This document shows, piece after piece, positions 11,200 through 60,737 of a stretch of DNA of 64,000 nt. The position numbers and the translations under genes were made by a program. Source of the stretch: Candidatus Nomurabacteria bacterium (GTDB taxonomy: Bacteria > Patescibacteriota > Patescibacteriia > UBA1558 > GWA2-36-10). The stretch is taken from assembly GCA_020632415.1 (NCBI GenBank), contig JACKFO010000002.1, forward strand, positions 322,732 through 386,731, given 5' to 3'. Numbering within the stretch: position 1 is the first letter of the stretch; every line of letters begins with the position of its first letter. The notes beneath the pieces are model-generated. The model worked only from the letters and a program-made list of their open reading frames with translations, did not search any database and had not been told where the DNA came from.

Positions 11200-11281
11200 A
11201 AAATAAATCAAACAAAATAAAAAATAATAGTACAAAATACTATTATTTTTTGTTGTTTTTAACTTATCCACAGTCCAGCTC

Positions 11282-11345: not shown

Positions 11346-11945
11346 ATGTCAAATCTAACAAAAAAACAAAAAGAAATTTTAGACTTTGTCACTGAATTTA
11401 TTCAAAGCAATGATTATGCTCCTAGCTATCGAGAAATAGCTGACTACTTTGGTCTCTCCTCTACTGCTACAGTCCACGAGCACCTCAAAGCTTTGGAAGA
11501 TAAAGGTCTAATTACCTCCAATCATAACGCGGCGCGTTCTTTAGAGCTTGTTACTCAACGTTTTGGCAAATCAATTGAATTGCCCTTAGTTGGTTTAATC
11601 GCTGCCGGAGAGCCGATTGAGGCGATTCAACAAAATGAATCAATCGATGTGCCTCAAAGCTTTGTTCGCGATGAAAATAGCTATGTTCTAAAAGTCAAAG
11701 GAGAATCAATGATTGAAGAAGGAATTTTGGATGGTGACTATGTAATTGTTGAACGTAATTTTTATCCACGCAATGGTGATGTGGTAGTCGCTCTACTTGA
11801 TAATACTTATGCTACTCTCAAAAAATATTTCCGAGAAGAAAACCGCATTCGTCTTCAGCCAGCCAACCACACCATGAAACCAATCTATGCCAAAAATCCA
11901 GCAATCCAAGGAATAGTCCGAGCAGTATTAAGAAAATTTGTTTAA
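11346..11945 (+). CDS. lexA: LexA repressor (S24 peptidase)
   Basis: N-terminal winged HTH (YREIADYFGLSSTATVHEHLKALEDKG), Ala-Gly cleavage site (IAAGEP), catalytic Ser (VKGESM) and Lys (ATLKKY). Confidence 0.9.
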   Translation: MSNLTKKQKEILDFVTEFIQSNDYAPSYREIADYFGLSSTATVHEHLKALEDKGLITSNHNAARSLELVTQRFGKSIELPLVGLIAAGEPIEAIQQNESIDVPQSFVRDENSYVLKVKGESMIEEGILDGDYVIVERNFYPRNGDVVVALLDNTYATLKKYFREENRIRLQPANHTMKPIYAKNPAIQGIVRAVLRKFV

Positions 11946-11946
11946 T

Positions 11947-12090
11947 ATGTCAAACTTTAGAAAAATAAAAATTTGGTATCGCAATATTCCGATTCTGAAA
12001 AAAAGTATTATCACTAGATATTACCAACGTTTGTTTCCCAAAAATAAACAAAGAATAGTTATTCGTTATCGAAAATTAGGTTTATTATAA
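11947..12090 (+). CDS. possible small highly basic protein, 47 aa, translationally coupled to lexA
   Basis: ATG is 1 nt after the lexA stop. 47 stop-free codons in very A+T-rich DNA (MSNFRKIKIWYRNIPILKKS...). No homology recognised. Confidence 0.3.
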   Translation: MSNFRKIKIWYRNIPILKKSIITRYYQRLFPKNKQRIVIRYRKLGLL

Positions 12091-12672
12091 TCAATTAAAC
12101 AAAGCTTTTATTTTTGCAAGATAAGCCGCAGATAAACCATGTTCTTCAGCGCCACTTAAAACAACTTGATAATATTCTTCGCTCGGCTGAGCAAAAGTTT
12201 GATCATTTTCAACAAGATAAACTTGAGCTAAAATATTTTTCTGATCAAAATTTACTTTGACAATTCGGCGCTGATAAACATTTGGGTAGCCCTCTACCTG
12301 ATCTAAAGCTCTTAAACAAGTATCGCTGATTCTAAACAAAACACCCTCTACTTCTTGACTAGCTTTTTCTTTAATATTGGCATAACCTCGACCATAAAAA
12401 TAAAAATCATAGTCCGCAAGTTTTGCCTGACCTAAATCCAAAAAATTATCCTCCCCACAACGTTGTAACATGCGAGAAGTGCTCATGTTTGACCCATAAG
12501 CAAAATAAAAAATATTTACTTCCGAATCTAATTTCAAGAACTGACTATCGTTATTTTTTGAATCGGAAATAGCTATTTCTTGCTGATTTTCAATCGGAAC
12601 AGTTTTTTGGCTAGCACAAGCAGTCAAAGAGCCTAAAGCCAAAAGCATTAAGAGAATCTTCAATTTTTTCAT
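12091..12672 (-). CDS. gamma-glutamylcyclotransferase (AIG2/GGACT-like) family lipoprotein
   Basis: Lipobox LGSLTAC, then FYFAYGSNMSTSRMLQRC and EGYP motifs typical of the GGCT-like fold. Confidence 0.65.
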   Translation of the reverse strand: MKKLKILLMLLALGSLTACASQKTVPIENQQEIAISDSKNNDSQFLKLDSEVNIFYFAYGSNMSTSRMLQRCGEDNFLDLGQAKLADYDFYFYGRGYANIKEKASQEVEGVLFRISDTCLRALDQVEGYPNVYQRRIVKVNFDQKNILAQVYLVENDQTFAQPSEEYYQVVLSGAEEHGLSAAYLAKIKALFN

Positions 12673-23529: not shown

Positions 23530-24513
23530 TCAGGGACGCCAGTAGTAGCGCACAGCCGCGACTGCCTGCTCGAGACGACTGTCGTAGCCGACCTGGAAGC
23601 TCAAAGAGCCGATCAGCTCCCCAGAATTCTTCCAGCCAAGAAAAGCCTGCCAGGCTTCAGCTTGCTCACCGAAGTCAAATCCTGAGGTCAAGAAGAACTT
23701 CTGCTTTGCTCCCAGACGGAGAAAATCCCAGTTTCCCTTCAAGACGTAGAGATTGTCCGGAGCGATCCATCCGTCCGGATGGAAGCGATAGCTCCAGCCA
23801 CCGGCCAAAGCCAAAGACTGCCAGGGTCGAGTGTAGAGCGAGACGTTATGACCAATCTCTTCTTCCCAGCTCAAGTGAAGATCGAAAATGCTCCAGTAGC
23901 CATTGAGGTGGTAGTTGCCGACCCAAACATCACTATCCAGCATCGGAAAAGCGCTGAACAAACTATCCAGACCTCGTGCTGGCCATGTACGACGAGCGCC
24001 ATAGCCCAAAGCAGCAGAAGCGCCAAAAGGTCGACCTCCCAACTGATCATACCAAGCGACTTGCAAGGCTGCTCCTGAGATACTCCCGGTAAAAGGCAGC
24101 TCAGCGTCATTTGGTCGCAAGAGAGTTGCTTCGTAGGCCTGAGGAAAGCTTTCCAAAGCCAGGTTTCGATACTGTCCAGCGCGCAGACTGAAATTCCCAT
24201 TGGAATTTCGCCAATCGTGCTGAACAAAGGCCTCGCTCAAGAAAGCCTCAGCCTGATCACCGTAAGCAATCTGACCTTCAGCCTTGAACGAAAAAACCTT
24301 GTTTTGACCACTTGAAACCCAAGCTTGTCCTCCTAGAAGGCTGTATGACCAGCGGGCTTGCAAGCTATCTTCGAAGCTGGTATTCAAACCAGCGCCTCCA
24401 TAGAAGTCCAGCTGGAAACGTTCCACCTGATCATCACTGGAAGCAGCAGCAAAAGCTGTGGACTGGGTCCAGAGGATCAACAGACCCAACAGCCAAAAAC
24501 TCAAAGTTTTCAT
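23530..24513 (-). CDS. orphan secreted protein with outer-membrane beta-barrel-like sequence pattern (G+C-rich cassette B1)
   Basis: GGAGGA SD. Signal peptide MKTLSFWLLGLLILWTQSTAFA/AASS. Many short alternating hydrophobic/aromatic strands (FQLDFYGGAG, RWSYSLLGG, FSFKAEGQIAYG, LQVAWYDQ, SLSFQVGYD) and an aromatic C-terminus VRYYWRP. G/C-ending codons. Confidence 0.6.
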   Translation of the reverse strand: MKTLSFWLLGLLILWTQSTAFAAASSDDQVERFQLDFYGGAGLNTSFEDSLQARWSYSLLGGQAWVSSGQNKVFSFKAEGQIAYGDQAEAFLSEAFVQHDWRNSNGNFSLRAGQYRNLALESFPQAYEATLLRPNDAELPFTGSISGAALQVAWYDQLGGRPFGASAALGYGARRTWPARGLDSLFSAFPMLDSDVWVGNYHLNGYWSIFDLHLSWEEEIGHNVSLYTRPWQSLALAGGWSYRFHPDGWIAPDNLYVLKGNWDFLRLGAKQKFFLTSGFDFGEQAEAWQAFLGWKNSGELIGSLSFQVGYDSRLEQAVAAVRYYWRP

Positions 24514-24620
24514 CGCCTTTTCCTCCGCGTTGCTTGATTTTGTTGTTATTTTCTGATTTCGTTTGTGTCAAAGATCGGGAGAACTTCATGTTTAAAAAAA
24601 CATGAAATATCCAACTGTAA

Positions 24621-24649
24621 ACCATACACCAAAATCTATTATTTGTCAA
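24621..24649 (-). promoter_or_regulatory. promoter of cassette B1
   Basis: Minus strand TTGACA (24644-24649), 17 nt, TATGGT (24621-24626). A 5' UTR of about 110 nt contains the palindrome at 24585-24606. Confidence 0.55.
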
Positions 24650-24679: not shown

Positions 24680-24708
24680 TTGACAAATATTTTAAAATAG
24701 TATATAAT
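24680..24708 (+). promoter_or_regulatory. promoter of cassette B2
   Basis: TTGACA 24680-24685, 17-nt spacer, TATAAT 24703-24708. Confidence 0.65.
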
Positions 24709-24753: not shown

Positions 24754-25500
24754 ATGAACCGCATTCACAGCTTCTGCCTGCTGATGCTCCTGTGCATCAG
24801 CGCCGCCTTCGCCGACGCCTACGAAGAACCCATCAAGAACACCAACCCCGACACCACGGCCACCACGGCGTCCTGGGAAGCGAACACGCTTCCGATGGAA
24901 CCCTGGCTGATCAAGTGGGACGCCAACGGCCAGCCGGTCAAGACGCATCGTCTGAGCTTCGAAATTTCCGGCAGCGACACCCTGTACTACAAGGGTGACT
25001 GCCTGATCGAAGATCAGCGCGTCCGCTGGTATCCGAAGTCCCTGCAGGACAACCGGATGCACTCGGCCTACTGGACCGCTCGTCGCAGCATGTACGCGGC
25101 ACTGCTCGTCGCCGGCTACCAAGCGCGCGAAGCCGACTCGCTCTGCCGCACGCTACAACCCGTGATCGATGGCCAGAAGGACAGTCGTCCCCTGCTCAAC
25201 CAGATCATGGCCGCCGCCCCGAACATCCACAAGCTGAACATGCTGGAACATGAGCTCCTGGCAATGCAACAGCAGATGGTCACCGTCGACATGCTCAACG
25301 AGTTCGCCGGAGACATCGACGCCGCCCTGTCCGAACACGTCAACTTCGCCGAAACGGTGGATGACTTCCTCAATCAGACACGAGGAAAGAAGTGGGGACG
25401 CGCCAAACGTGCTCACTCCCTCTTCCTGACATCGGCGCCGCCGAGCGAGGAACGATGCCTTCCGTCAACGGAAGAGATGCCCATGCCGAGCAAGTTCTGA
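24754..25500 (+). CDS. orphan secreted protein, 248 aa (G+C-rich cassette B2)
   Basis: GGAGGA 5 nt upstream of ATG 24754. Signal peptide MNRIHSFCLLMLLCISAAFA/DAYEE. Strongly G/C-ending codons. The track start at 24565 runs through the promoter and is rejected. Confidence 0.6.
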   Translation: MNRIHSFCLLMLLCISAAFADAYEEPIKNTNPDTTATTASWEANTLPMEPWLIKWDANGQPVKTHRLSFEISGSDTLYYKGDCLIEDQRVRWYPKSLQDNRMHSAYWTARRSMYAALLVAGYQAREADSLCRTLQPVIDGQKDSRPLLNQIMAAAPNIHKLNMLEHELLAMQQQMVTVDMLNEFAGDIDAALSEHVNFAETVDDFLNQTRGKKWGRAKRAHSLFLTSAPPSEERCLPSTEEMPMPSKF

Positions 25501-31338: not shown

Positions 31339-32688
31339 CTAGTCGACGTTCACTGTGCCAACAGCGCCACCGCCTCTGACCTTGATATTGGAGTTTTTCT
31401 TCTCAGCCAAATCTCCAATCTCTTGCAGACAACGCAGACGCTGTTCATAGGTTGCTGTTTCGGGGTTCAGGCCTAAAGCCGCCAAAGCAGCATCAATCTC
31501 TGCTGTGAAAGCCTCGCCATCTGCCTTGCGAAGACGAATCTTACGCTTGGATTCAGACTCAGCGGCGGCCTCAGCATTTTGAGCTTTTTCGATCTCTGGA
31601 TCTCTAGTGGGATCACCAAAGTCCAAAGTATCGAAAGCATGCCCAACGGCCTCCAGCAACTTGCCATTAAGTTCGGTTTGCTTCGAATGATCAAAGGTTA
31701 CGTCCAAACCCTTGACCTGATCGAAACTCATAGAGCTCATGACACTTATCACATCATTGACAATTACTGTGCCAGCTACCTCAACCGAAGTCGACTGATC
31801 CTCAGACGACATCCGCAGAAAACGAGAAGGATGCTGACAAGTAATCACGCCAACTCGAAGATCAATATTGGCAGTAGAGTTGTCTCCTAGCGGCACAAAA
31901 CCAGTCTTGTATTTGCGTTCTATGGCCTCATAACGCAACAGAGTGACGCTATAGAGAAACATCCAAACTGGAATTCCTACTCGGCCCAGATACCAAGGCA
32001 AGATTGGCGCATTTATGTCACTATCACGATGATTGCCGTGATTAGATCCATAAAAATACCAATCGCCAAATTTCTTCCTGATCGGACCTCTCGGAATCAG
32101 AAATGGCCTATTCATGAACTTCGGAACCCAGCGCTCGGTCACTTCCGGCACCATGATCGAACCAATACTCCAGAAAATTGGTAAAGCCAAGAGAAAGACT
32201 GGCTGCCAGATACCAACCATAGCGCAGGTGAAAAAGCCGACAGCAGAAATTACTCCGAACCCGTAAGGTCTGGCCGGAGGCGGAGCTGGTTTTTGACCCT
32301 TGACTACATCACGCTTATCAATGAAAAAGCTGCCGGTCCAAGCTCGGCGGAAAGCGATCACGCCGAAGCCTAGCAAAACAAGGCTGGCGATCAGCTTCCA
32401 CCAAGGGAATTCTCCGTTGAAATTAAGCCAGGAGAAAAGCTGCCAGTTCCACGGCTTCAGCAACAAAGCTGCGTACCAAAGAACAAGTCCAAGCTGCAAA
32501 GCGATCCGAGTCCTCTTATCCTTAGATGTTTTAGGCTTCTTATCCTTGTCCAGATCAACGAGCCAGCTATTCAAGCTCCAGTAGATACTGAGCGGCAAGG
32601 CAAAGAAGATCAGGAAAATAGCGATGCCGTGAACAAATTGTGGGTCTTTCCATCCCACACGGCTGATGATTTTCTCCAAGGCTTCCAT
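31339..32688 (-). CDS. orphan polytopic membrane protein with soluble C-terminal domain, 449 aa (G+C-elevated cassette C)
   Basis: AAGGAG SD 7 nt from the ATG. About 6-7 Trp/Phe-rich hydrophobic helices in the first 250 aa, a PAPPPARP linker, and a charged Ala/Glu-rich C-terminus. G+C is visibly above the flanks. Confidence 0.65.
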   Translation of the reverse strand: MEALEKIISRVGWKDPQFVHGIAIFLIFFALPLSIYWSLNSWLVDLDKDKKPKTSKDKRTRIALQLGLVLWYAALLLKPWNWQLFSWLNFNGEFPWWKLIASLVLLGFGVIAFRRAWTGSFFIDKRDVVKGQKPAPPPARPYGFGVISAVGFFTCAMVGIWQPVFLLALPIFWSIGSIMVPEVTERWVPKFMNRPFLIPRGPIRKKFGDWYFYGSNHGNHRDSDINAPILPWYLGRVGIPVWMFLYSVTLLRYEAIERKYKTGFVPLGDNSTANIDLRVGVITCQHPSRFLRMSSEDQSTSVEVAGTVIVNDVISVMSSMSFDQVKGLDVTFDHSKQTELNGKLLEAVGHAFDTLDFGDPTRDPEIEKAQNAEAAAESESKRKIRLRKADGEAFTAEIDAALAALGLNPETATYEQRLRCLQEIGDLAEKKNSNIKVRGGGAVGTVNVD

Positions 32689-32786
32689 GGTCGTTCTCCT
32701 TCATTTCGTTTTTTATTCAATCTTGTTTTCGTTGTCGATGAACAGTCGAACAATCGAGCTTGAAAGCTCAAATTATTCAATATAGA

Positions 32787-47929: not shown

Positions 47930-49609
47930 TTATCTATTTTCTAAAACTGGAATGTTTTCCGGTTTAATTTCTTCCACTGACTTTTGAGCGTCTTGCTCGA
48001 TCATTTGCGGTTTTTCTTCAATTTCTACTAATTCTTCACTATCTTGAAATTCAATTACTTCTATCTCTACTGGTTTAATTTCTTCCTTGATCTGAATTGG
48101 TGAAATACGGGCTGTGCCGCCACCAGAACGAATTGGCTTGATAATTTGTTCTTTTTTAGTAATTTCTTCTTTGCCTACTATCAAAACTTCAACATCTTCT
48201 TTGCTTAATTCAGTTACTGGAACTTTTGGTAAAATAGTAACTTTATACAAAGTTTCAGTTAAACCATTTTCAGAAACCACCCTGACGACAATCACATCGT
48301 TTAAAGTAAATTCTTTTTTGCTTAACTCATCAATGTCTTTGTTTTCCCATAATTGCCATTTTTTGTCTCTTAACAAAGAAACTCCCAAATAACTAGCATC
48401 TGGATCATTAGCTTCTACAAATAAGCTATTTAAATCGATGGAATCAACACAAGCATGATCTGACCATTCATGACAATTTTCTTCGCTGATTACTGGTACA
48501 AATAAACTCGCGCCTTCATCTTCCATTTTGGCAACTTTGACATTGTCTAATTTTAAAATATCATTTTGACCGATGCTAAATTTCTGCAAACTTGCATCAT
48601 TAACTTGATTGCCGATGATATTTAATTTATAAAAAGCTTGAGTTGTGCCATCTTCGGCAACTACCGTTACCTGGATAACATCACCGGGCAAAATATTTTC
48701 TTTATGTAAAGATAAAATCTTTTCGTTTTCCCAAATAAAAGTTGGTGCTGGGTAAACCAAAATTGCACTTGGACGGACAATTTCTACTTTAATATAACTA
48801 ATGTTTTGATCTTCTGGCTCTAAAAATAAACCAAGAAAATTTTTGTTTGGATCTAAACAAGTTTGACTAGAAACTTCTGTTTCTGAACAAAAATAATCAT
48901 CAATTAACAAATTTGCTCCTGTTTCAGTAAAATCTTTGACTGTTAAATTAGCAAAAGGCAAAACATCAACGAAATCAACTTTAAAAATGTTTAAGTTAGC
49001 ATTATCAGACAAAACGATTTCCGATCCGCCTCCGCCACCATTACCGCCTCCGCCATAAATAGGTCTAGTGGAAGTAGGGGTTGAAGTAGCCTCTTCATCT
49101 TGCAATAAATCTTGTAAATCTTCCCACATCAACAAACACTGATTAACAACGTCATCATTAATATCTTCTGGATTTAAAGCAGCCATCACAATATCAGCCT
49201 CAATACAATCGTCTAAAGTTAAATCTGTCAAAAGATCTTCAGTTGAAGTAGATAAGTCTTCTGCTGGAGCAACAGGAACTTTTGGTGGAGCTACAAAATT
49301 TGGTCTTTGACCACCAATTCCACCGACAAAGTCATCGGTACTAGTGCTTGACTCATCGGCCACTTCTTCTACCAAAAGCTGTTCAGATGCAACTTCTTGA
49401 TTATTATCGCTAATTTCTGGTGCTTCATCACGACCAAAAACGATAATACTTTGAATTAAGGCATAAACACCTAAAGCAAACAAAAACCAAAAAAAGAATT
49501 TCTTTTTCTTCTTTTCTTCTGGCTGAGGATTTTGATCCAAATTTTCAGTTGGCGTTTGAGCAACTTGATTGTCTGGTGATTGATCTAAATTATTTTGATT
49601 TTCTTCCAT
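47930..49609 (-). CDS. paralogous membrane-anchored surface protein with cadherin-like beta-sandwich domains (559 aa)
   Basis: Same architecture as the downstream gene: anchor KKKKKFFFWFLFALGVYALIQ, GGGGNGGGGGS tract, domain ends VIQVTVVAEDGTTQAFYKLNII and VVRVVSENGLTETLYKVTIL. Confidence 0.65.
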   Translation of the reverse strand: MEENQNNLDQSPDNQVAQTPTENLDQNPQPEEKKKKKFFFWFLFALGVYALIQSIIVFGRDEAPEISDNNQEVASEQLLVEEVADESSTSTDDFVGGIGGQRPNFVAPPKVPVAPAEDLSTSTEDLLTDLTLDDCIEADIVMAALNPEDINDDVVNQCLLMWEDLQDLLQDEEATSTPTSTRPIYGGGGNGGGGGSEIVLSDNANLNIFKVDFVDVLPFANLTVKDFTETGANLLIDDYFCSETEVSSQTCLDPNKNFLGLFLEPEDQNISYIKVEIVRPSAILVYPAPTFIWENEKILSLHKENILPGDVIQVTVVAEDGTTQAFYKLNIIGNQVNDASLQKFSIGQNDILKLDNVKVAKMEDEGASLFVPVISEENCHEWSDHACVDSIDLNSLFVEANDPDASYLGVSLLRDKKWQLWENKDIDELSKKEFTLNDVIVVRVVSENGLTETLYKVTILPKVPVTELSKEDVEVLIVGKEEITKKEQIIKPIRSGGGTARISPIQIKEEIKPVEIEVIEFQDSEELVEIEEKPQMIEQDAQKSVEEIKPENIPVLENR

Positions 49610-49733
49610 ATTTTTATATAAATTATTGACGTTTCATTATAACATATTTAAATTTTAAGGCAAATCATCTCTGATATGATACCAAAAAATTACATAATTC
49701 AACTTTTGCGGATAATAACATATTTTATATATT

Positions 49734-49775
49734 CTGTCAATATGTATTGACAGAAAAGTAAATATATGATATAAA
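49734..49775 (+). promoter_or_regulatory. promoter of cassette E with 20-bp perfect palindrome over the -35 box
   Basis: CTGTCAATA-TG-TATTGACAG at 49734-49753. TTGACA 49747-49752, 17 nt, TGaTATAAA (-10 at 49770-49775). The palindrome also creates a TTGACA on the opposite strand. Confidence 0.6.
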
Positions 49776-49893
49776 AATACATTAATTACGTTCCTTACAA
49801 AGGAGATTGTTATAGTGTCTAGATTAACTAGATCATAGTTAGTTTGCACACTGTAACAGTCTTTCAACAATCCTCAAACAGGAGAACAAAGCC

Positions 49894-49962
49894 ATGTTCA
49901 AAAAGTGGTTTCCTAATCAAAGCAACCAGAGAGAGTCGACGTCTTCAACGCGAGTTGAGTAA
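49894..49962 (+). CDS. possible upstream micro-ORF, 22 aa (MFKKWFPNQSNQRESTSSTRVE)
   Basis: AGGAG 9 nt upstream of the ATG. It ends 17 nt before the main cassette E ORF. Confidence 0.3.
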   Translation: MFKKWFPNQSNQRESTSSTRVE

Positions 49963-49979
49963 GCCTTAAGGAGGGAACA

Positions 49980-50429
49980 ATGAGTCCCAAGACCAAATTT
50001 TACTGCTGGCTGGCGGCGATGACCGTCATCACTCTGACGACTCTTTTTGTTGTCAACGCAGTGAGTGGTAATCCCACATTAGCCATATCCGCCGCATTCG
50101 GCGCGTTCGCTATCACCGTAATAGTCGCGCTCGCTGTCGCCACATCATCTGTCGTGCTCGCCGGACTCATCGCACTCCTGATCGCCAGCGGAGGCGGAGT
50201 GGTCGCGTGCGCTGTCGCACTCCTGATCACCGCCAGAGCCGGAGTGGTCGCGAACGTCGACGCATTCGCCGGACTCGCCGCCGCATCCTTAGCATTCGCC
50301 ATATCCGTCGTAATTATCTTCATCCTTTCTGCTTATAAGAGCACTCTTTCCAAGAGGCATATCCTTCTTTCAATGACGGTGGTATCCATTGTCATCGCCA
50401 CCCCGATGCTCTACCTCGCACTGCAGTAG
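49980..50429 (+). CDS. orphan Ala/Val/Ile-rich polytopic membrane protein, 149 aa (G+C-rich cassette E)
   Basis: AAGGAGGG SD. Almost entirely hydrophobic sequence with an internal duplicated segment. The antisense ORF 50000..50323 is an artefact of high G+C. Confidence 0.55.
   Translation: MSPKTKFYCWLAAMTVITLTTLFVVNAVSGNPTLAISAAFGAFAITVIVALAVATSSVVLAGLIALLIASGGGVVACAVALLITARAGVVANVDAFAGLAAASLAFAISVVIIFILSAYKSTLSKRHILLSMTVVSIVIATPMLYLALQ
50170..50252. repeat. internal tandem duplication (about 45-nt period) inside the cassette E ORF
   Basis: TCGCACTCCTGATC at 50170 and 50215; GGAGTGGTCGCG at 50196 and 50241. Gives peptide IALLIASGGGVVAC / ALLITARAGVVAN. Confidence 0.8.
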
Positions 50430-50463
50430 AACATTGAAACATTGACTGTTTGAAGACCAAAGT

Positions 50464-50499
50464 CCCTCACGTGCACTATGACGTGAGGGCTTTTATTTT
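50464..50499 (+). terminator. terminator of cassette E, T-run overlapping the stop codon of the convergent SDR gene
   Basis: CCCTCACGT-8 nt-ACGTGAGGG followed by CTTTTATTTT. Confidence 0.75.
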
Positions 50500-51203
50500 C
50501 TTTCTAAATGTTGGAACGGATCAACCACTGCTCCGCTTTTGTATTTTTGCTGTTGACTAATTGTTTCGCCAATAATTTGAGCTGTCTCCTCTGGCTGATA
50601 CAAAGCCTGACGTCCTTGTTTAAAAGCTTTTTTAAACAAAGCAGTATTAGTTGCTCCTGGAGTAACTGTCAAAACTTTGACAGTTTTCAAATCTTTGGCC
50701 AAAGATTGACCAAAACCAACCACACCAAATTTTGAAGCACAATACACGGAAAATTCTTTTTTACCTTCCAAGCCAGCGCCAGAGGAAATATTCACAATCA
50801 ATCCTCTGCTCTTTTTTAAATTTGGCAAAAAATATTTTGACATCAAGATTGTTGCCTGCAAATTAACAACTAAGGTTTTGACAATTGCCTGATCTTGATA
50901 AGTTTCTAAAAGACCTGCCAGTGGCACGCCGGCGTTATTTAACAAAACATCAATTCTCTGATTCTTGAGTTTAGTGGCGATTTTTTTTATTTGTTGAACT
51001 TTTTCTAAATCAATGACAAAAGTCTGAATTGTTATCTTTTCTTTTTCGGCTAAAGTTTTGGCTTTTTTTTGCCAAGTTCCTCTTTTTTTATCCAATAGAA
51101 TCAAATCAAAATTATTTTTGGCCAGCCAACAAGCCGTAGCCCAACCAATCCCTTGAGCCGCTCCGGTGATCAAAACTGTTTTGGAAGCTTTTGAAAAAAT
51201 CAT
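50493..51203 (-). CDS. SDR family oxidoreductase
   Basis: VLITGAAQGIGWA cofactor motif, NNAG, and the catalytic S...YCASK pattern. Confidence 0.85.
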   Translation of the reverse strand: MIFSKASKTVLITGAAQGIGWATACWLAKNNFDLILLDKKRGTWQKKAKTLAEKEKITIQTFVIDLEKVQQIKKIATKLKNQRIDVLLNNAGVPLAGLLETYQDQAIVKTLVVNLQATILMSKYFLPNLKKSRGLIVNISSGAGLEGKKEFSVYCASKFGVVGFGQSLAKDLKTVKVLTVTPGATNTALFKKAFKQGRQALYQPEETAQIIGETISQQQKYKSGAVVDPFQHLERK

Positions 51204-53922: not shown

Positions 53923-53951
53923 TTGACAAATAAATACTTTTATGATAATAT
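53923..53951 (+). promoter_or_regulatory. promoter of cassette F
   Basis: TTGACA 53923-53928, 17 nt, TGaTAATAT (-10 at 53946-53951). Confidence 0.5.
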
Positions 53952-54015: not shown

Positions 54016-54558
54016 ATGCAAGCCTTTCATGAGTGGTTCGTCCACGAACTCGAGCAACGGCAGAACACGATCGACAATCCCTGTCCGATCGAAGTCGAAG
54101 TCAATGAATCGGGTACGGTACTCGGTACCCTACCCGACAACCTGAAGCCCCTCTTCTTCCTGATGCTCGACCTGATCGATGAGCGCAACGAGTCCGCCAC
54201 CGCGCTCCACGACTGGATCGTGGAACACCCCGGATTCCACCCGGCACACCCCGAAGATGCCAAGCCGGAACTGATCGGGGAATTCCAGGAGAAGAAGATC
54301 AATCACCGAGTCGCCTGCGACAAGCTGAAGACGATCACGTCCTACTTCTGGAGCAGCATCCACCACATCTTCCCCGACAGCCACAACCACAACAAGATGG
54401 AGGTCTGCAAGGACTGGCAGATCGTCTGCGGAGATGATGAAGGTGACATCAAGATCGATATCATCGGCATCGGCGGCATTCCCTCCGACTTCGTCGGTGG
54501 CTCCACCGTCGATCCCTTCGGCGACCTCCTCGGCAGCTTCTTCCGTCGAGGACACTGA
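54016..54558 (+). CDS. orphan acidic His-rich cytoplasmic protein, 180 aa (G+C-rich cassette F)
   Basis: GGAG 5 nt upstream of ATG 54016 (MQAFHEWFVHELEQ...). G/C-ending codons. Three antisense track ORFs here are artefacts of high G+C. Confidence 0.55.
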   Translation: MQAFHEWFVHELEQRQNTIDNPCPIEVEVNESGTVLGTLPDNLKPLFFLMLDLIDERNESATALHDWIVEHPGFHPAHPEDAKPELIGEFQEKKINHRVACDKLKTITSYFWSSIHHIFPDSHNHNKMEVCKDWQIVCGDDEGDIKIDIIGIGGIPSDFVGGSTVDPFGDLLGSFFRRGH

Positions 54559-56687: not shown

Positions 56688-56703
56688 CTCACTTAAAATT
56701 AAT

Positions 56704-56728
56704 CAAGGTGCTCTGACCTTGTTTTTTT
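56704..56728 (+). terminator. terminator after tRNA-Lys
   Basis: CAAGGT-GCTCTG-ACCTTG followed by TTTTTTT. Confidence 0.7.
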
Positions 56729-56729
56729 A

Positions 56730-56757
56730 TTGACAAAATAAATAAGTAGTATAAACT
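56730..56757 (+). promoter_or_regulatory. promoter of micro-cassette G1
   Basis: TTGACA 56730-56735. Best -10 is TAAACT at 56752-56757 (16-nt spacer). Weaker than the other cassette promoters. Confidence 0.4.
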
Positions 56758-56811
56758 TAATAAGTAAAATAAGTCCTTCCACCCGTCCATCTTAAACCAA
56801 GGAGGTATGCC

Positions 56812-56898
56812 ATGCATGCCAACCACGCCCCGCCCACGATGAGCACCGATCTCGTTTCGCCCCTGCGCCGTCAGCTCAAGAGCACCGAAATCGTCTAG
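56812..56898 (+). CDS. micro-ORF G1, 28 aa (MHANHAPPTMSTDLVSPLRRQLKSTEIV)
   Basis: AAGGAGG 6 nt upstream. G+C-rich. Shares KSTEIV and the flanking DNA with G2. May instead be a small RNA. Confidence 0.4.
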   Translation: MHANHAPPTMSTDLVSPLRRQLKSTEIV

Positions 56899-56935
56899 AG
56901 CCACCAAGGCAGACGAGGCTATTGAGCTTCACCTA

Positions 56936-56966
56936 CGGCTCGCGCCACGCGCGAGCCGCTTTTTTT
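56936..56966 (+). terminator. terminator of G1
   Basis: CGGCTCGCGC-CAC-GCGCGAGCCG followed by CTTTTTTT. 39-nt block nearly identical to the G2 terminator. Confidence 0.85.
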
Positions 56967-56975
56967 ATCCAAAGT

Positions 56976-57004
56976 TTGACAAAATTAGAAATATATCATA
57001 AAAT
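56976..57004 (+). promoter_or_regulatory. promoter of micro-cassette G2
   Basis: TTGACA 56976-56981, 17 nt, TAAAAT 56999-57004. Confidence 0.55.
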
Positions 57005-57102
57005 AAAAACTCAAGGAGTGTGAGTATTCTCAAGACTGACTTGGGAATCTCCCTCAACAACCATCAACCGTGGCTGTCCGCAAGGACGAAAGGAGCCGGT
57101 CT

Positions 57103-57201
57103 ATGAAGACCCCCTGCACCGCCATCATCACCCAGAAGAGCACGGAGATCGTGCAGACCACCGAGAAGAACGGCCAGCTCAAGGCCATCGAGCAGATCTA
57201 G
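57103..57201 (+). CDS. micro-ORF G2, 32 aa (MKTPCTAIITQKSTEIVQTTEKNGQLKAIEQI)
   Basis: AAAGGAG 6-7 nt upstream. G+C-rich with G/C-ending codons. 5' UTR of about 95 nt. Confidence 0.45.
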   Translation: MKTPCTAIITQKSTEIVQTTEKNGQLKAIEQI

Positions 57202-57247
57202 CTCCAGCGGGAGTAAATCACTCGAAGCCAAGAAGCTGAAACACCCA

Positions 57248-57278
57248 CGGCTCGCGCCACGCGCGAGCCGCTTTTTTT
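57248..57278 (+). terminator. terminator of G2
   Basis: Same CGGCTCGCGC-CAC-GCGCGAGCCG + T-run as G1 (one mismatch over 39 nt including flanks). Confidence 0.85.
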
Positions 57279-57366
57279 ATTGCATAAATTGTGTTTAAAC
57301 TGTCAATAAAATTGCCTTGAAAAAAGCTAAAAAATAAGGTAAGCTAACTCTACTAAAACAGGCTTT

Positions 57367-60260: not shown

Positions 60261-60737
60261 ATGAATTGGCGAAAAATTGCACTTCTGTGCCTACTTCTTG
60301 CTTTGCCGATGTGGATGCTGATCCGTTCTATGCTGCCTTCGCAGTCAGTTATGGAACAGCTCCAGGAGATCGCCGATCGAACTCCCATTCACTTCGCTTT
60401 GTTGGTCGATGGACAGAGAATCGAGTATTTCGGCTTTGCCATCGATACCAGCACAGCAGCGGATACGAGTTTCGTCGAAAATCTCTACTTCTACGATCAA
60501 GTCGTGATCTGCAACATTCCAGGAGAGAACCAGTACCTCGAAGTACTCAAGGACACCCTGGATACGATCGACCCTCTGGGCACAGTCAAAGATCACGCTC
60601 CATTGGTCGGAGGCGACTACATCATCGAAGCCTACGATGCTTGGACGGATTCCCTCAAGTTCAGAGCGCGAATTCGCGCCGAACACATTGACGGAGAACC
60701 GTACATCTTCGATGATCAGAACCTTGTCAACAACTGA
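60261..60737 (+). CDS. orphan secreted or membrane-anchored protein, 158 aa (G+C-rich cassette H)
   Basis: GGAGGA SD 6 nt from ATG 60261. N-terminal hydrophobic segment MNWRKIALLCLLLALPMWML. G/C-ending codons. Overlapping track ORFs 60221..60691(+) and 60345..60746(-) are rejected. Confidence 0.55.
   Translation: MNWRKIALLCLLLALPMWMLIRSMLPSQSVMEQLQEIADRTPIHFALLVDGQRIEYFGFAIDTSTAADTSFVENLYFYDQVVICNIPGENQYLEVLKDTLDTIDPLGTVKDHAPLVGGDYIIEAYDAWTDSLKFRARIRAEHIDGEPYIFDDQNLVNN

Follow-up and report, generated by a model that had tools for sequence, protein, structure and literature searches.

An orphan membrane protein encoded by a probable moron-like accessory cassette at a variable intergenic site in Candidatus Nomurabacteria

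Here, we describe cassette E, which on balance we take to be an autonomous, moron-like accessory expression unit occupying a variable intergenic slot in the chromosome of an ultra-small, AT-rich Candidatus Nomurabacteria (CPR) bacterium. A moron is a single open reading frame (ORF) with its own promoter and terminator, lying between two genes that neighbour each other in related genomes (PMC4378225). From a promoter set back-to-back with a distal promoter for a surface-protein gene, the unit would be transcribed from ~49782 into an mRNA carrying a 5′ hairpin, a micro-ORF and a 149-codon ORF before reaching its terminator. Such a unit may have been acquired or exchanged horizontally from a higher-GC gene pool, probably other Patescibacteria or their mobile elements. 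An earlier note on this DNA had described a cassette with a promoter, a micro-ORF, a very hydrophobic small protein whose composition is foreign, and a terminator; all of these are present and form an autonomous transcription unit, and every feature it listed was found, with coordinates exact or within 1 nt. Positions are those of the window, the whole 64-kb stretch analysed.

49663–49636, minus strand: proximal promoter-like site, closer to the surface-protein gene, TTGCCT-16-TATAAT
49712–49740, minus strand: distal promoter-like site towards the 559-aa surface-protein gene, TTGACA (49740–35)-17 nt-TATTAT (49717–12)
49732–49755, no strand: palindrome 1, TTCTGTCAATA-TG-TATTGACAGAA (11+2+11 nt), with both divergent −35 hexamers inside
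49747–49775, plus strand: cassette E promoter, TTGACA (49747–52)-17 nt-TATAAA (49770–75), with an extended −10 TG at 49767–68
49802–49864, plus strand: 5′UTR hairpin of 28 bp (17 + 11) with 5 G·U pairs and a 5-nt loop, −32.3 kcal/mol
49880–49962, plus strand: micro-ORF (49894–49962, 22 codons, peptide MFKKWFPNQSNQRESTSSTRVE) with Shine-Dalgarno (SD) AGGAG at 49880–84
49968–49975, plus strand: main-ORF SD AAGGAGGG, its GGAGG core 5 nt from the ATG
49980–50429, plus strand: main ORF, encoding the 149-aa orphan membrane protein E149 (NCBI H6761_01860)
50170–50259, plus strand: in-frame 45-nt tandem duplication, copies 50170–50214 and 50215–50259, 36/45 identical
50430–50456, plus strand: 3′UTR segment, AACATTGA twice and then CUGUUUGA
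50464–50499, plus strand: intrinsic terminator, a hairpin at 50464–50489 (9 bp, 6 G-C) followed by CTTTTATTTT

The cassette E promoter is, by its sequence, a strong, near-consensus promoter of the sigma-70 type. A scan located both this promoter and the minus-strand TTGACA-N17-TATTAT (11/12 matches, with a TG), in agreement with the proposal that a palindrome overlaps the −35 box and generates a second promoter on the opposite strand. That palindrome had been described as a perfect 20-mer: CTGTCAATA-TG-TATTGACAG indeed lies at 49734–49753, and occurs once in the whole window, but it is not perfect because the TG centre is asymmetric, and its symmetry runs further out, to 11-nt arms. Perfect inverted repeats (arms of at least 9 nt, loop of at most 6) number 21 in the window against 3.1 expected from local shuffles; most are terminators, and palindrome 1 is a non-terminator. 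Most of it is made up of the consensus −35 hexamers of two divergent promoters, set back-to-back. The −35 context TATTGACA is also found at the window promoters at 53923, 56562 and 56730 and at the isl177 promoters of two related loci (L004 and L005).

The leader contains a hairpin that is strand-specific (z = −7.05 on the plus strand versus −3.3 on the minus strand) and has a probability of 0.999 in the predicted fold of the full-length mRNA, where it may stabilise the mRNA or serve as a processing site. The 22-codon micro-ORF with its AGGAG, followed after 17 nt by the main ATG at 49980, reads as the earlier note had it. Its peptide is hydrophilic, carries neither a leader motif nor a GG motif, and gave no homolog and no family match in Pfam/PHROGs, NCBIfam or PADLOC; the compositional boundary of the locus (~49920) falls inside it. 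Opening the main-ORF translation-initiation region is predicted to cost ~10 kcal/mol, and because of this cost we propose translational coupling, in which ribosomes finishing the micro-ORF 6 nt before the SD would help open the region. The predicted energy (10.0 kcal/mol) compares with 10.8 ± 2.6 kcal/mol in synonymous-codon permutations, and 46% of these close the region to the same degree or more, which gives no indication that occlusion was selected. Long-range sequestration of the main SD as a selected feature was likewise rejected, as the pairings shift between leader-only and full-length folds and the energy is permutation-like.

The 149-aa ORF is very probably translated, judging from its strong SD and its nucleotide and codon patterns. 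Its period-3 nucleotide asymmetry is strong (chi-square 94, p = 5e-18), and its GC content of 0.56 rises to 0.65 at third positions (GC3), far above the 0.22–0.29 of native genes, which bears out the foreign composition ascribed to it. Third-position C reaches 0.46 in the main ORF, 0.37–0.56 in isl229, isl311 and isl202, and 0.08–0.18 in native genes including that of ribosomal protein L21. We rejected translational selection on a highly expressed gene as the source of the high GC3, because the L21 gene keeps the AT-rich native codons. The earlier note had allowed that the antisense frame might be the conserved one. However, the 107-aa antisense ORF has no homolog and G-rich third positions unlike any other cassette, 38% of shuffles give an ORF as long, and synonymous codon usage leans towards the island table more in the sense frame (+0.82 log2 units per codon) than in the antisense frame (+0.29), the sense usage being cassette-like; of the two, the sense frame is the better candidate for coding. 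A structured non-coding RNA in place of a gene was also rejected: only tRNAs in the window pass the Rfam gathering threshold, the best E-values across 49550–50560 are 1.8 or higher, and the body of the ORF has no excess of RNA structure (z = −0.56 and +0.07).

Within the ORF, the tandem duplication of about 45 nt that had been noted is in frame and significant: it encodes residues 64–78 (IALLIASGGGVVACA) and 79–93 (VALLITARAGVVANV), and its 36/45 identity was reached by none of 500 codon shuffles (maximum 31). TRF does not call this repeat, which sits in a GC peak (0.65–0.72). A further recurrence, that of GCCGGACTC, stands at 50160, while its second copy begins at 50268 and not, as had been given, at 50269. 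The duplication does not extend to the whole protein, as the self-alignment score of E149 equals the shuffle mean and the idea of two homologous halves was dropped.

E149 is composed almost entirely of Ala, Val, Ile, Leu, Gly, Thr and Ser, as described earlier (A30, L20, V20, I14, S13, T12, G8; GRAVY 1.56). Structure prediction, which had been suggested as a check, gave a low-confidence AlphaFold model (pLDDT 66) with six helices (3–28, 32–54, 57–69, 73–87, 93–118 and 125–148), which in the model probably form five membrane spans; we infer that E149 is a small polytopic protein of the cytoplasmic membrane. All charged residues fall within three clusters (4–6, 86–94 and 120–127), and a five-span topology with the N-terminus in and the C-terminus out would place the Lys/Arg clusters at 4–6 and 120–127 both inside. 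Random placement of the charges gives P = 0.016 for the 79-residue stretch without any; the clustering could partly stem from the GC gradient along the ORF. The model matches generic helix bundles only, with no specific fold match.

We searched E149 against a word-indexed set of 5.8 billion proteins and, by exhaustive HMMER (phmmer), against 1.84 billion representatives. The sole match in both was the protein itself, H6761_01860, on its 842-kb contig. Pfam, PHROGs, NCBIfam, PADLOC and PDB sequences returned no match, and neither the window nor the loci of the relatives contain a paralog. As E149 lacks a detectable relative, its gene is a real accessory gene but a functionally opaque one, with nothing by which to recognise a toxin, an immunity protein or a holin. 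A 9-kb contig assembled independently (Logan) shows 100% identity, which indicates that the locus is genuine; two short contigs both stop at 50514.

At the 3′ end, the terminator T-run overlaps the end of the convergent SDR gene, as had been noted: the SDR stop codon (50493–95) lies inside it, and the T-run is the complement of that gene's last codons and stop codon.

The surroundings point to a slot with changing content. Interspersed with the housekeeping genes of this 36% GC window are eight or more units, cassette E included, each built of promoter, ORF and terminator; the flanking genes include tRNA synthetases, DnaB, RecR, L21 and SUF genes. Scanning for TTGACA plus a −10 element showed every GC-rich cassette of the window to be preceded by such a site.

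24680, 32815, 56562 (tRNA promoter) and 60183: promoters with a full TATAAT
24649 (TATGGT), 53923 (TAATAT) and 56730 (TAAACT): sites with a weaker −10

Two relatives (L004/L008 and L005/L009) retain the ArgS, ATPase, SDR and surface-protein genes, and their SDR/surface-protein slot holds a 277-aa secreted protein and a 177-aa protein of 45–49% GC, whose homologs are window genes at other places and which are unrelated to E149. The NifU/L21 and tRNA-Lys/DnaB slots are also conserved and filled by non-homologous cassettes. A metagenome scan with an SDR profile yielded only two close loci, with the identities and neighbourhood of L004 and L005. We claim no homology between the promoter or leader of cassette E and the promoter of the relatives' slot, because the alignment is weak and the −35 boxes are out of register. 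Scanning the ORFs between 40.7 and 63.2 kb turned up no mobility genes, and we found no insertion scars, recombinase genes or donor lineage for cassette E. Frequent gene transfer and genomic islands have been described in Patescibacteria (PMC12455944). An integron gene cassette was considered and rejected: the unit has its own promoter and an ordinary 3′ terminator hairpin, there are no shared core motifs, and no integrase lies nearby.

Cassette E resembles phage morons in being a promoter-ORF-terminator unit of deviant composition whose flanks are the same in relatives without the gene, in lacking a recombinase target sequence, and in carrying a small membrane protein as cargo. In contrast to phage morons, it sits in a cellular chromosome amid housekeeping genes and not in a (pro)phage, and blastn against phages and plasmids and a search of viral contigs gave no match. 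It also differs in that the units number at least eight in 64 kb and the relatives' slot is filled with other cassettes, and in its extra upstream ORF and large 5′ hairpin. By analogy, our guess is that E149 serves an accessory envelope function, such as one at the host interface or in phage exclusion, a role often filled by the small membrane proteins that morons encode. It shares with lambda RexB and superinfection-exclusion proteins the size class, multiple spans and an autonomous accessory unit, but no sequence or specific fold similarity, and it has no partner gene.

CPR/Patescibacteria have tiny genomes in which about half of the genes are without known function, and how these bacteria vary what they carry at the surface and in the membrane is a key question for their episymbiotic way of life. 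A lone hypothetical membrane protein with a palindromic promoter would by itself be of moderate interest only. The locus offers a clean case in which a strain-specific, strongly promoted orphan membrane protein replaces other accessory genes in a slot that is conserved and adjoins large surface-protein genes. If the cassette pattern holds genome-wide, it would provide a simple compositional handle on fast-turnover accessory genes and tractable candidates for host-interaction or phage-resistance functions.

A wider reading, which we think improbable although worth stating, takes this pattern as a previously undescribed architecture of this Nomurabacteria clade. Conserved slots between housekeeping genes would be repeatedly refilled with GC-rich, lineage-specific orphans, mostly secreted or membrane proteins, arriving as high-expression units from an essentially unsampled pool, with twin palindromes marking a regulator or an exchange mechanism. 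If true, the slots may hold an interface or defence toolkit of an episymbiont. The make-up of a unit under this reading is a consensus promoter, a 5′ stem-loop, a CA-rich leader, a strong SD and a GC-rich terminator.

The moron-like account leaves one feature unexplained, a second palindrome beyond the terminator.

50664–50685, no strand: palindrome 2, AACTGTCAAA-AC-TTTGACAGTT, in the SDR coding region (residues TVKVLTV)

Palindromes 1 and 2 share identical 7-nt half-sites and lie 931 bp apart. They could be operators: a putative dimeric DNA-binding protein would recognise the CTGTCAA/TTGACAG half-sites at 49734–53 and, because that site overlaps both −35 boxes, repress cassette E jointly with the distal surface-gene promoter; the same protein at an auxiliary site (50666–83) in the SDR gene could loop out the 931-bp cassette. 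We regard this as doubtful. The pattern CTGTCAA-N(0–12)-TTGACAG occurs exactly twice in 64 kb, flanking cassette E, and never in 100 shuffles, and because degenerate copies are no commoner than chance predicts, the perfect pair is conspicuous. Palindrome 2 is not present in the relatives, where the corresponding KVKVLS(V/L) would need two amino-acid changes plus specific codons, including the rare GTC, to produce it, and the outer symmetry of palindrome 1 reaches 3–5 positions past the −35 hexamers. However, a pair of consensus −35 hexamers, together with a TA context also seen at other promoters, explains most of palindrome 1; half-site spacing is unequal (6 nt versus 4 nt), which makes one rigid dimer awkward; and the ~9 kb to each side contain no regulator gene. 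Palindrome 2 was noticed post hoc and shares a 92-nt stretch with two further unrelated perfect palindromes, a cluster that suggests a local mutational or RNA-structure phenomenon instead of an operator. The shared operator for divergent transcription that the earlier note had put forward thus fares unevenly: both relatives keep the orthologous surface-protein gene with an upstream region devoid of palindrome 1, a finding that note had named as counting against it, whereas the second perfect palindrome 931 bp away is a reason not to discard it.

Operators with a second site in a coding region have precedents in lac O1–O2 and gal OE–OI. As with lac O2 in lacZ and gal OI in galE, identical half-sites here lie at a promoter and in a neighbouring gene, and the sites of those systems are likewise a few hundred bp to 1 kb apart; unlike them, the half-site spacing is unequal and the promoter site is largely made of −35 hexamers. 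A LexA box was rejected, as the genome's own lexA (11346–11945) has an unrelated upstream palindrome, AATAGTA-N5-TACTATT (11219–11251). By reasoning, Xer/dif or invertase sites were rejected too: the palindrome centres differ in length and sequence, one palindrome lies inside an intact gene, and a GC-skew switch is absent.

An alternative that we consider quite unlikely is that the main ORF is young or free of protein-level selection, a frame arisen de novo or expanding fast, with little or no protein function. The lack of stop codons in GC-rich DNA would have opened the frame, which would have grown by internal duplication of a GC-rich unit and be transcribed from a strong promoter. Consistent with this, the ORF is an absolute orphan of low-complexity Ala/Val/Leu composition, its GC content peaks where the internal repeats lie, the 45-nt copies differ in 7 codons, each time non-synonymously, and 4.4% of dinucleotide shuffles yield 154 codons without a stop, with the 107-aa antisense ORF coexisting. 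The strong period-3 signal argues otherwise, as do C-ending codons like those of cassettes with clearly non-repetitive proteins, a good SD at ideal spacing, and a promoter-terminator unit that the ORF fills exactly. The hydrophobic helices, moreover, are separated by short polar loops in a consistent positive-inside pattern, and a young ORF would not account for where the GC-rich DNA came from in a genome of 36% GC.

The earlier note had speculated that the cassette might be a membrane-active toxin, holin or immunity module. E149 is unlikely to be a toxin, and we give the module as a whole, in which E149 would permeabilise or protect the membrane while the micro-ORF and structured leader act like mok/hok control or the micro-ORF supplies a partner peptide, very little credence. 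In favour of the module are the small size and marked hydrophobicity of the protein, the frequency of membrane proteins among moron products, and a structured leader, with the micro-ORF stopping just ahead of a predicted-occluded SD. Yet holin, toxin and defence families gave no match (Pfam/PHROGs at E ≤ 0.1; NCBIfam; PADLOC). At 149 aa and six predicted helices, E149 is too large and polytopic for a type I toxin, a class under ~60 aa with a single membrane span. Holins have one to four spans and a highly charged hydrophilic C-terminal tail; E149 instead ends in a hydrophobic helix (...PMLYLALQ) without a charged tail. Bacteriocin precursors carry a leader (double-glycine or Sec) and depend on a dedicated exporter, and among the ORFs scanned none beside the cassette encodes an endolysin, a bacteriocin precursor, an ABC exporter or an antitoxin: the neighbours are the surface protein and an SDR oxidoreductase, and the scan from 40.7 to 63.2 kb shows no lysin. 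The micro-ORF peptide, hydrophilic and with neither leader motif nor homolog, also argues against the module, and a lethal toxin behind a strong, constitutive-looking promoter would be hard to tolerate.

The likeness to hok/mok/sok and leader-peptide coupling lies in a short upstream frame that ends beside a predicted-occluded SD in front of a gene for a hydrophobic protein, and in the predicted 5′–3′ pairing of the full-length mRNA. Here, by contrast, there is no overlap between the micro-ORF and the main ORF, the protein is 149 aa long and polytopic, the occlusion lies within synonymous controls and there is no sequence similarity. No convincing antisense RNA promoter was found for the leader: the scan shows no promoter-like site on the minus strand between 49741 and 50671, and a weak one at 50672–50643 (10/12), in the SDR gene, faces the cassette. 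The 3′UTR element CUGUUUGA is predicted to pair with leader positions 49874–81 at a probability of 0.97, only marginal against chance, a pairing that recalls hok fold-back inhibition.

Cassette E is best described as a moron-like accessory cassette carrying a lineage-specific accessory gene, located in a variable slot of a CPR bacterial chromosome. It lies in a 36% GC chromosome segment of Candidatus Nomurabacteria (CPR/Patescibacteria), between an SDR oxidoreductase gene and a surface-protein gene, where we located the following features:

49732-49755, palindrome 1, over the divergent promoters
49802-49864 (+), 28-bp leader hairpin
49894-49962 (+), 22-codon upstream ORF
49980-50429 (+), main ORF, encoding the 149-aa protein E149
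50464-50489 (+), terminator hairpin
50664-50685, palindrome 2, within the SDR gene

E149 is identical to NCBI H6761_01860, carried on an 842-kb contig. The cassette is adjoined by two large surface proteins, both anchored at the N-terminus and with weak cadherin-like matches; the SDR gene and a 909-aa ORF, read from its sequence rather than by profile search as a P-type ATPase, are also near. A scan of 40.7-63.2 kb found housekeeping ORFs (two class II aminoacyl-tRNA synthetases, ArgS, DnaB, YbaB, RecR, L21, NifU, SufS, SufBD and ScpA) and, among the ORFs scanned, no integrase, transposase or transcription factor. Two short contigs, L002 (window 49608-50514) and L003 (window 49749-50514), which come from other metagenome assemblies, carry cassette E only, at 100% identity; they share an exact end point 22 nt inside the SDR gene, which branching at strain level or an effect of coverage might explain, and may not be independent samples.

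All elements listed in an earlier note were present at the locus, with small corrections, and its interpretation is supported in part: we regard the unit as a real, self-contained gene of foreign composition, whose orphan product is predicted to be a polytopic membrane protein. Codon and signal statistics make translation of the sense ORF very probable. Its period-3 asymmetry is very strong (chi-square 94, p = 5e-18), and its third-position C is 0.46, against 0.37-0.56 in other GC-rich cassettes with ordinary non-repetitive proteins and 0.08-0.18 in native genes including ribosomal protein L21. An AAGGAGG lies 5 nt 5' of the first ATG in the open stretch, and the ORF occupies the unit between promoter and terminator. 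In the 107-aa antisense ORF, third positions are G-rich and the island-codon score is lower than in the sense frame; it had no homolog in a homology search, and its length is matched in 38% of shuffles. A structured-RNA reading of the GC-rich body was rejected because neither strand showed excess folding (z = -0.56 and +0.07) and Rfam gave no match.

E149 is rich in hydrophobic residues (Ala 30, Leu 20, Val 20, Ile 14; GRAVY 1.56), and its single-sequence AlphaFold model (pLDDT 66, pTM 0.55) places helices at residues 3-28, 32-54, 57-69, 73-87, 93-118 and 125-148. All eight charged or His residues fall within positions 4-6, 86-94 and 120-127, leaving an uncharged run of 79 residues (P = 0.016 under random placement). 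From this we infer a five-span protein in which helices 57-87 form one span kinked around GGG and both Lys/Arg clusters lie inside. The 45-nt duplication noted earlier is in frame, with 36 of 45 positions identical (none of 500 codon shuffles exceeded 31), and was not called by Tandem Repeats Finder; it lies within the island's GC maximum (0.65-0.72) and encodes residues 64-78 and 79-93, the central helix-turn-helix. The repeat GCCGGACTC does recur, its second position being 50268 and not 50269. Comparing the two halves of E149 gave no significant similarity. A word-indexed search of 5.8 billion clustered proteins and an exhaustive phmmer search of 1.84 billion representatives recovered nothing but E149 itself. 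There was likewise no match in phage or plasmid DNA, in viral contigs, among PDB sequences or in the Pfam, PHROGs, NCBIfam and PADLOC libraries, and fold searches returned generic helix bundles only. The speculation that E149 is a toxin, immunity or holin-like protein failed wherever membership could be tested.

We compared the slot in two related organisms, each represented in two collections (L004/L008 and L005/L009). Their SDR proteins are 70% and 64% identical to that of the window, synteny between the window and L005 spans 20 kb, and the order ArgS, ATPase, SDR, slot, surface proteins is kept. In both relatives a signal-peptide protein of 277-278 aa shares the slot with a protein of about 177 aa; their genes have 45-49% GC, against about 30-35% for the genomes. 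These proteins have no homology to E149; their distant homologs in the window are encoded at other places, 23530-24513 (E = 1e-5) and 54016-54555 (E = 6e-11). Other slots likewise have conserved positions and non-homologous occupants: those of the NifU/L21 slot compare at E = 0.48, and the tRNA-Lys/DnaB slot holds a different 21-codon cassette in L005. A homolog of the window's 180-aa cassette protein (H6761_01875, self-match only in the word-indexed search) is split in L005 at 11792-12327 (-) between two ORFs that overlap, of 116 and 76 aa; it is a frameshift pseudogene there, or else misassembled. The L004 version, of 177 aa, is intact.

The window contains five further GC-rich single-gene units:

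23530-24513 (-)
24754-25500 (+)
31339-32688 (-)
54016-54558 (+)
60261-60737 (+)

Their GC3 is 0.51-0.71, versus 0.22-0.29 in native genes. None has a family in Pfam, PHROGs, NCBIfam or PADLOC, a 449-aa cassette protein giving only sub-threshold matches to Band_7 and a PHROG lipoprotein family, and most carry signal peptides or membrane anchors. In every GC-rich unit of the window, a TTGACA -35 is followed after 16-17 nt by a match to the -10 box. A promoter scan showed TATAAT in full at 24680, 32815 and 60183; the matches at 24649, 53923, 56730 and 56976 were weaker. Each has a Shine-Dalgarno sequence and a GC-rich hairpin terminator, the latter read in three of the five further single-gene units. 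The interval between tRNA-Lys and dnaB (56700-57290) contains two mini-cassettes in tandem, each with a promoter (-35 at 56730 and 56976), a Shine-Dalgarno sequence and a small GC-rich ORF:

56812-56898, ORF, MHANHAPPTMSTDLVSPLRRQLKSTEIV
57103-57201, ORF, MKTPCTAIITQKSTEIVQTTEKNGQLKAIEQI

Both peptides contain KSTEIV, and the terminators, at 56936 and 57248, are identical (CGGCTCGCGCCACGCGCGAGCCG followed by a T-run).

This architecture of promoter, ORF and terminator matches that defining phage morons (PMC4378225); in contrast to morons, the window units reside in a cellular chromosome, at high density. Patescibacteria are reported to have abundant genomic islands and to exchange genes among themselves (PMC12455944), and our literature search found no published description of this cassette pattern. 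We consider it unlikely, on present evidence, that the clade has a systematic, fast-turnover accessory repertoire made up of GC-rich cassettes in fixed slots; if it does, this would be of considerably greater interest.

The plus-strand promoter of cassette E is TTGACA-17-TATAAA with an extended -10 TG, and a minus-strand promoter-like site, TTGACA-17-TATTAT, matches consensus at 11 of 12 positions; the surface-protein gene has an additional proximal promoter-like site at 49663-49636. Palindrome 1, proposed in the earlier note as a shared operator, is present and is not a perfect 20-mer because its TG centre is non-symmetric. Its outward symmetry extends to 11-nt arms (TTCTGTCAATA-TG-TATTGACAGAA), and its core is two back-to-back consensus -35 hexamers 6 bp apart, a spacing at which both divergent promoters presumably could not hold RNA polymerase simultaneously. 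The arm-extending TA also precedes TTGACA at window promoters 53923, 56562 and 56730 and at promoters of the GC-rich unit isl177 in L004 and L005.

Palindrome 2, on the far side of cassette E and 931 bp from palindrome 1, is perfect (AACTGTCAAA-AC-TTTGACAGTT) and has the same 7-nt half-sites. The pattern CTGTCAA-N(0-12)-TTGACAG occurs in the window at these two places only and in none of 100 shuffles, as would suit paired regulator sites acting through an operator or looping. However, the half-sites are spaced 4 nt apart in palindrome 2 and 6 nt in palindrome 1, and palindrome 2 is one of three perfect palindromes (arms 9-10 nt) within 92 nt (50616-39, 50664-85, 50690-707). Such a cluster (at least three) arose in none of 2000 synonymous resamplings of the SDR gene, native coding sequence has only five such palindromes in 15.7 kb, and the stretch folds moderately on the mRNA strand (z = -2.9). 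The promoters of the relatives' orthologous surface-protein gene contain TGTCAA and lack palindrome 1, which argues against a conserved operator; the relatives' SDR reads KVKVLS(V/L) at the palindrome 2 position, with no palindrome there. Regulation through the two palindromes, whether by a shared operator or by looping, seems possible but improbable. Elsewhere, a perfect 14+5+14 A/T-rich palindrome (AAAAAATAATAGTA-CAAAA-TACTATTATTTTTT, 11219-11251) about 95 nt 5' of lexA (11346-11945; LexA_DNA_bind and Peptidase_S24) may be the LexA operator in this CPR lineage or a terminator of unusual form.

After the cassette E terminator hairpin comes a T-run complementary to the last SDR codons and stop codon, and the window SDR gene, with no terminator of its own, abuts this hairpin. 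In the relatives (L004 8670-8820; L005 10694-10837), the SDR gene does carry a terminator (AAAACCGTGTTAATACGCGGTTTTT), and beyond it lie a TTGACA-type promoter and the CA-rich leader of the slot's first gene.

The leader (49782-50000) folds at -61.4 kcal/mol (z = -5.1), a signal that comes from the 28-bp hairpin (-32.3 kcal/mol, z = -7.05; probability 0.999 in the full-length mRNA fold). The hairpin has no second copy in the window and is strand-specific, reaching only -15.3 kcal/mol on the minus strand because every one of its five non-Watson-Crick positions is a G.U on the plus strand. It probably acts at the level of the mRNA, as a stabiliser of the 5' end or as a processing site of the RNase III type. 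For the main initiation region, folding predicts a closed state, with partners that vary with the transcript folded: a 5' UUCCUU segment in the leader alone, and CUCCU plus GGACUCAU within the duplicated region at full length. Opening this region would cost 10.0 kcal/mol, as much as in synonymous-codon permutations (10.8 +/- 2.6); occlusion is therefore a generic effect of a GC-rich, Leu/Ala-rich ORF behind AGGAGG, and not demonstrably a selected structure. As the upstream ORF stops 6 nt 5' of the main Shine-Dalgarno sequence, a ribosome terminating there would plausibly unwind the closed region, coupling translation of the two ORFs. A further predicted pairing joins leader positions 49874-81 to 3'UTR positions 50446-53 (probability 0.97), only marginally above chance by our estimate.

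Stem-loops begin four of eight leaders of the GC-rich units. In the leaders of three cassettes other than cassette E, 32680-32780(-), 24505-24614(-) and 57011-57112(+), a stem-loop lies within a few nucleotides of the predicted start site (examples are UUGAAUAAUUUGAGCUUUCAAGCUCGAUUGUUCGA and a 9+4+9 hairpin at 24585-24606), which suggests that 5' stabiliser hairpins are a feature common to these units.
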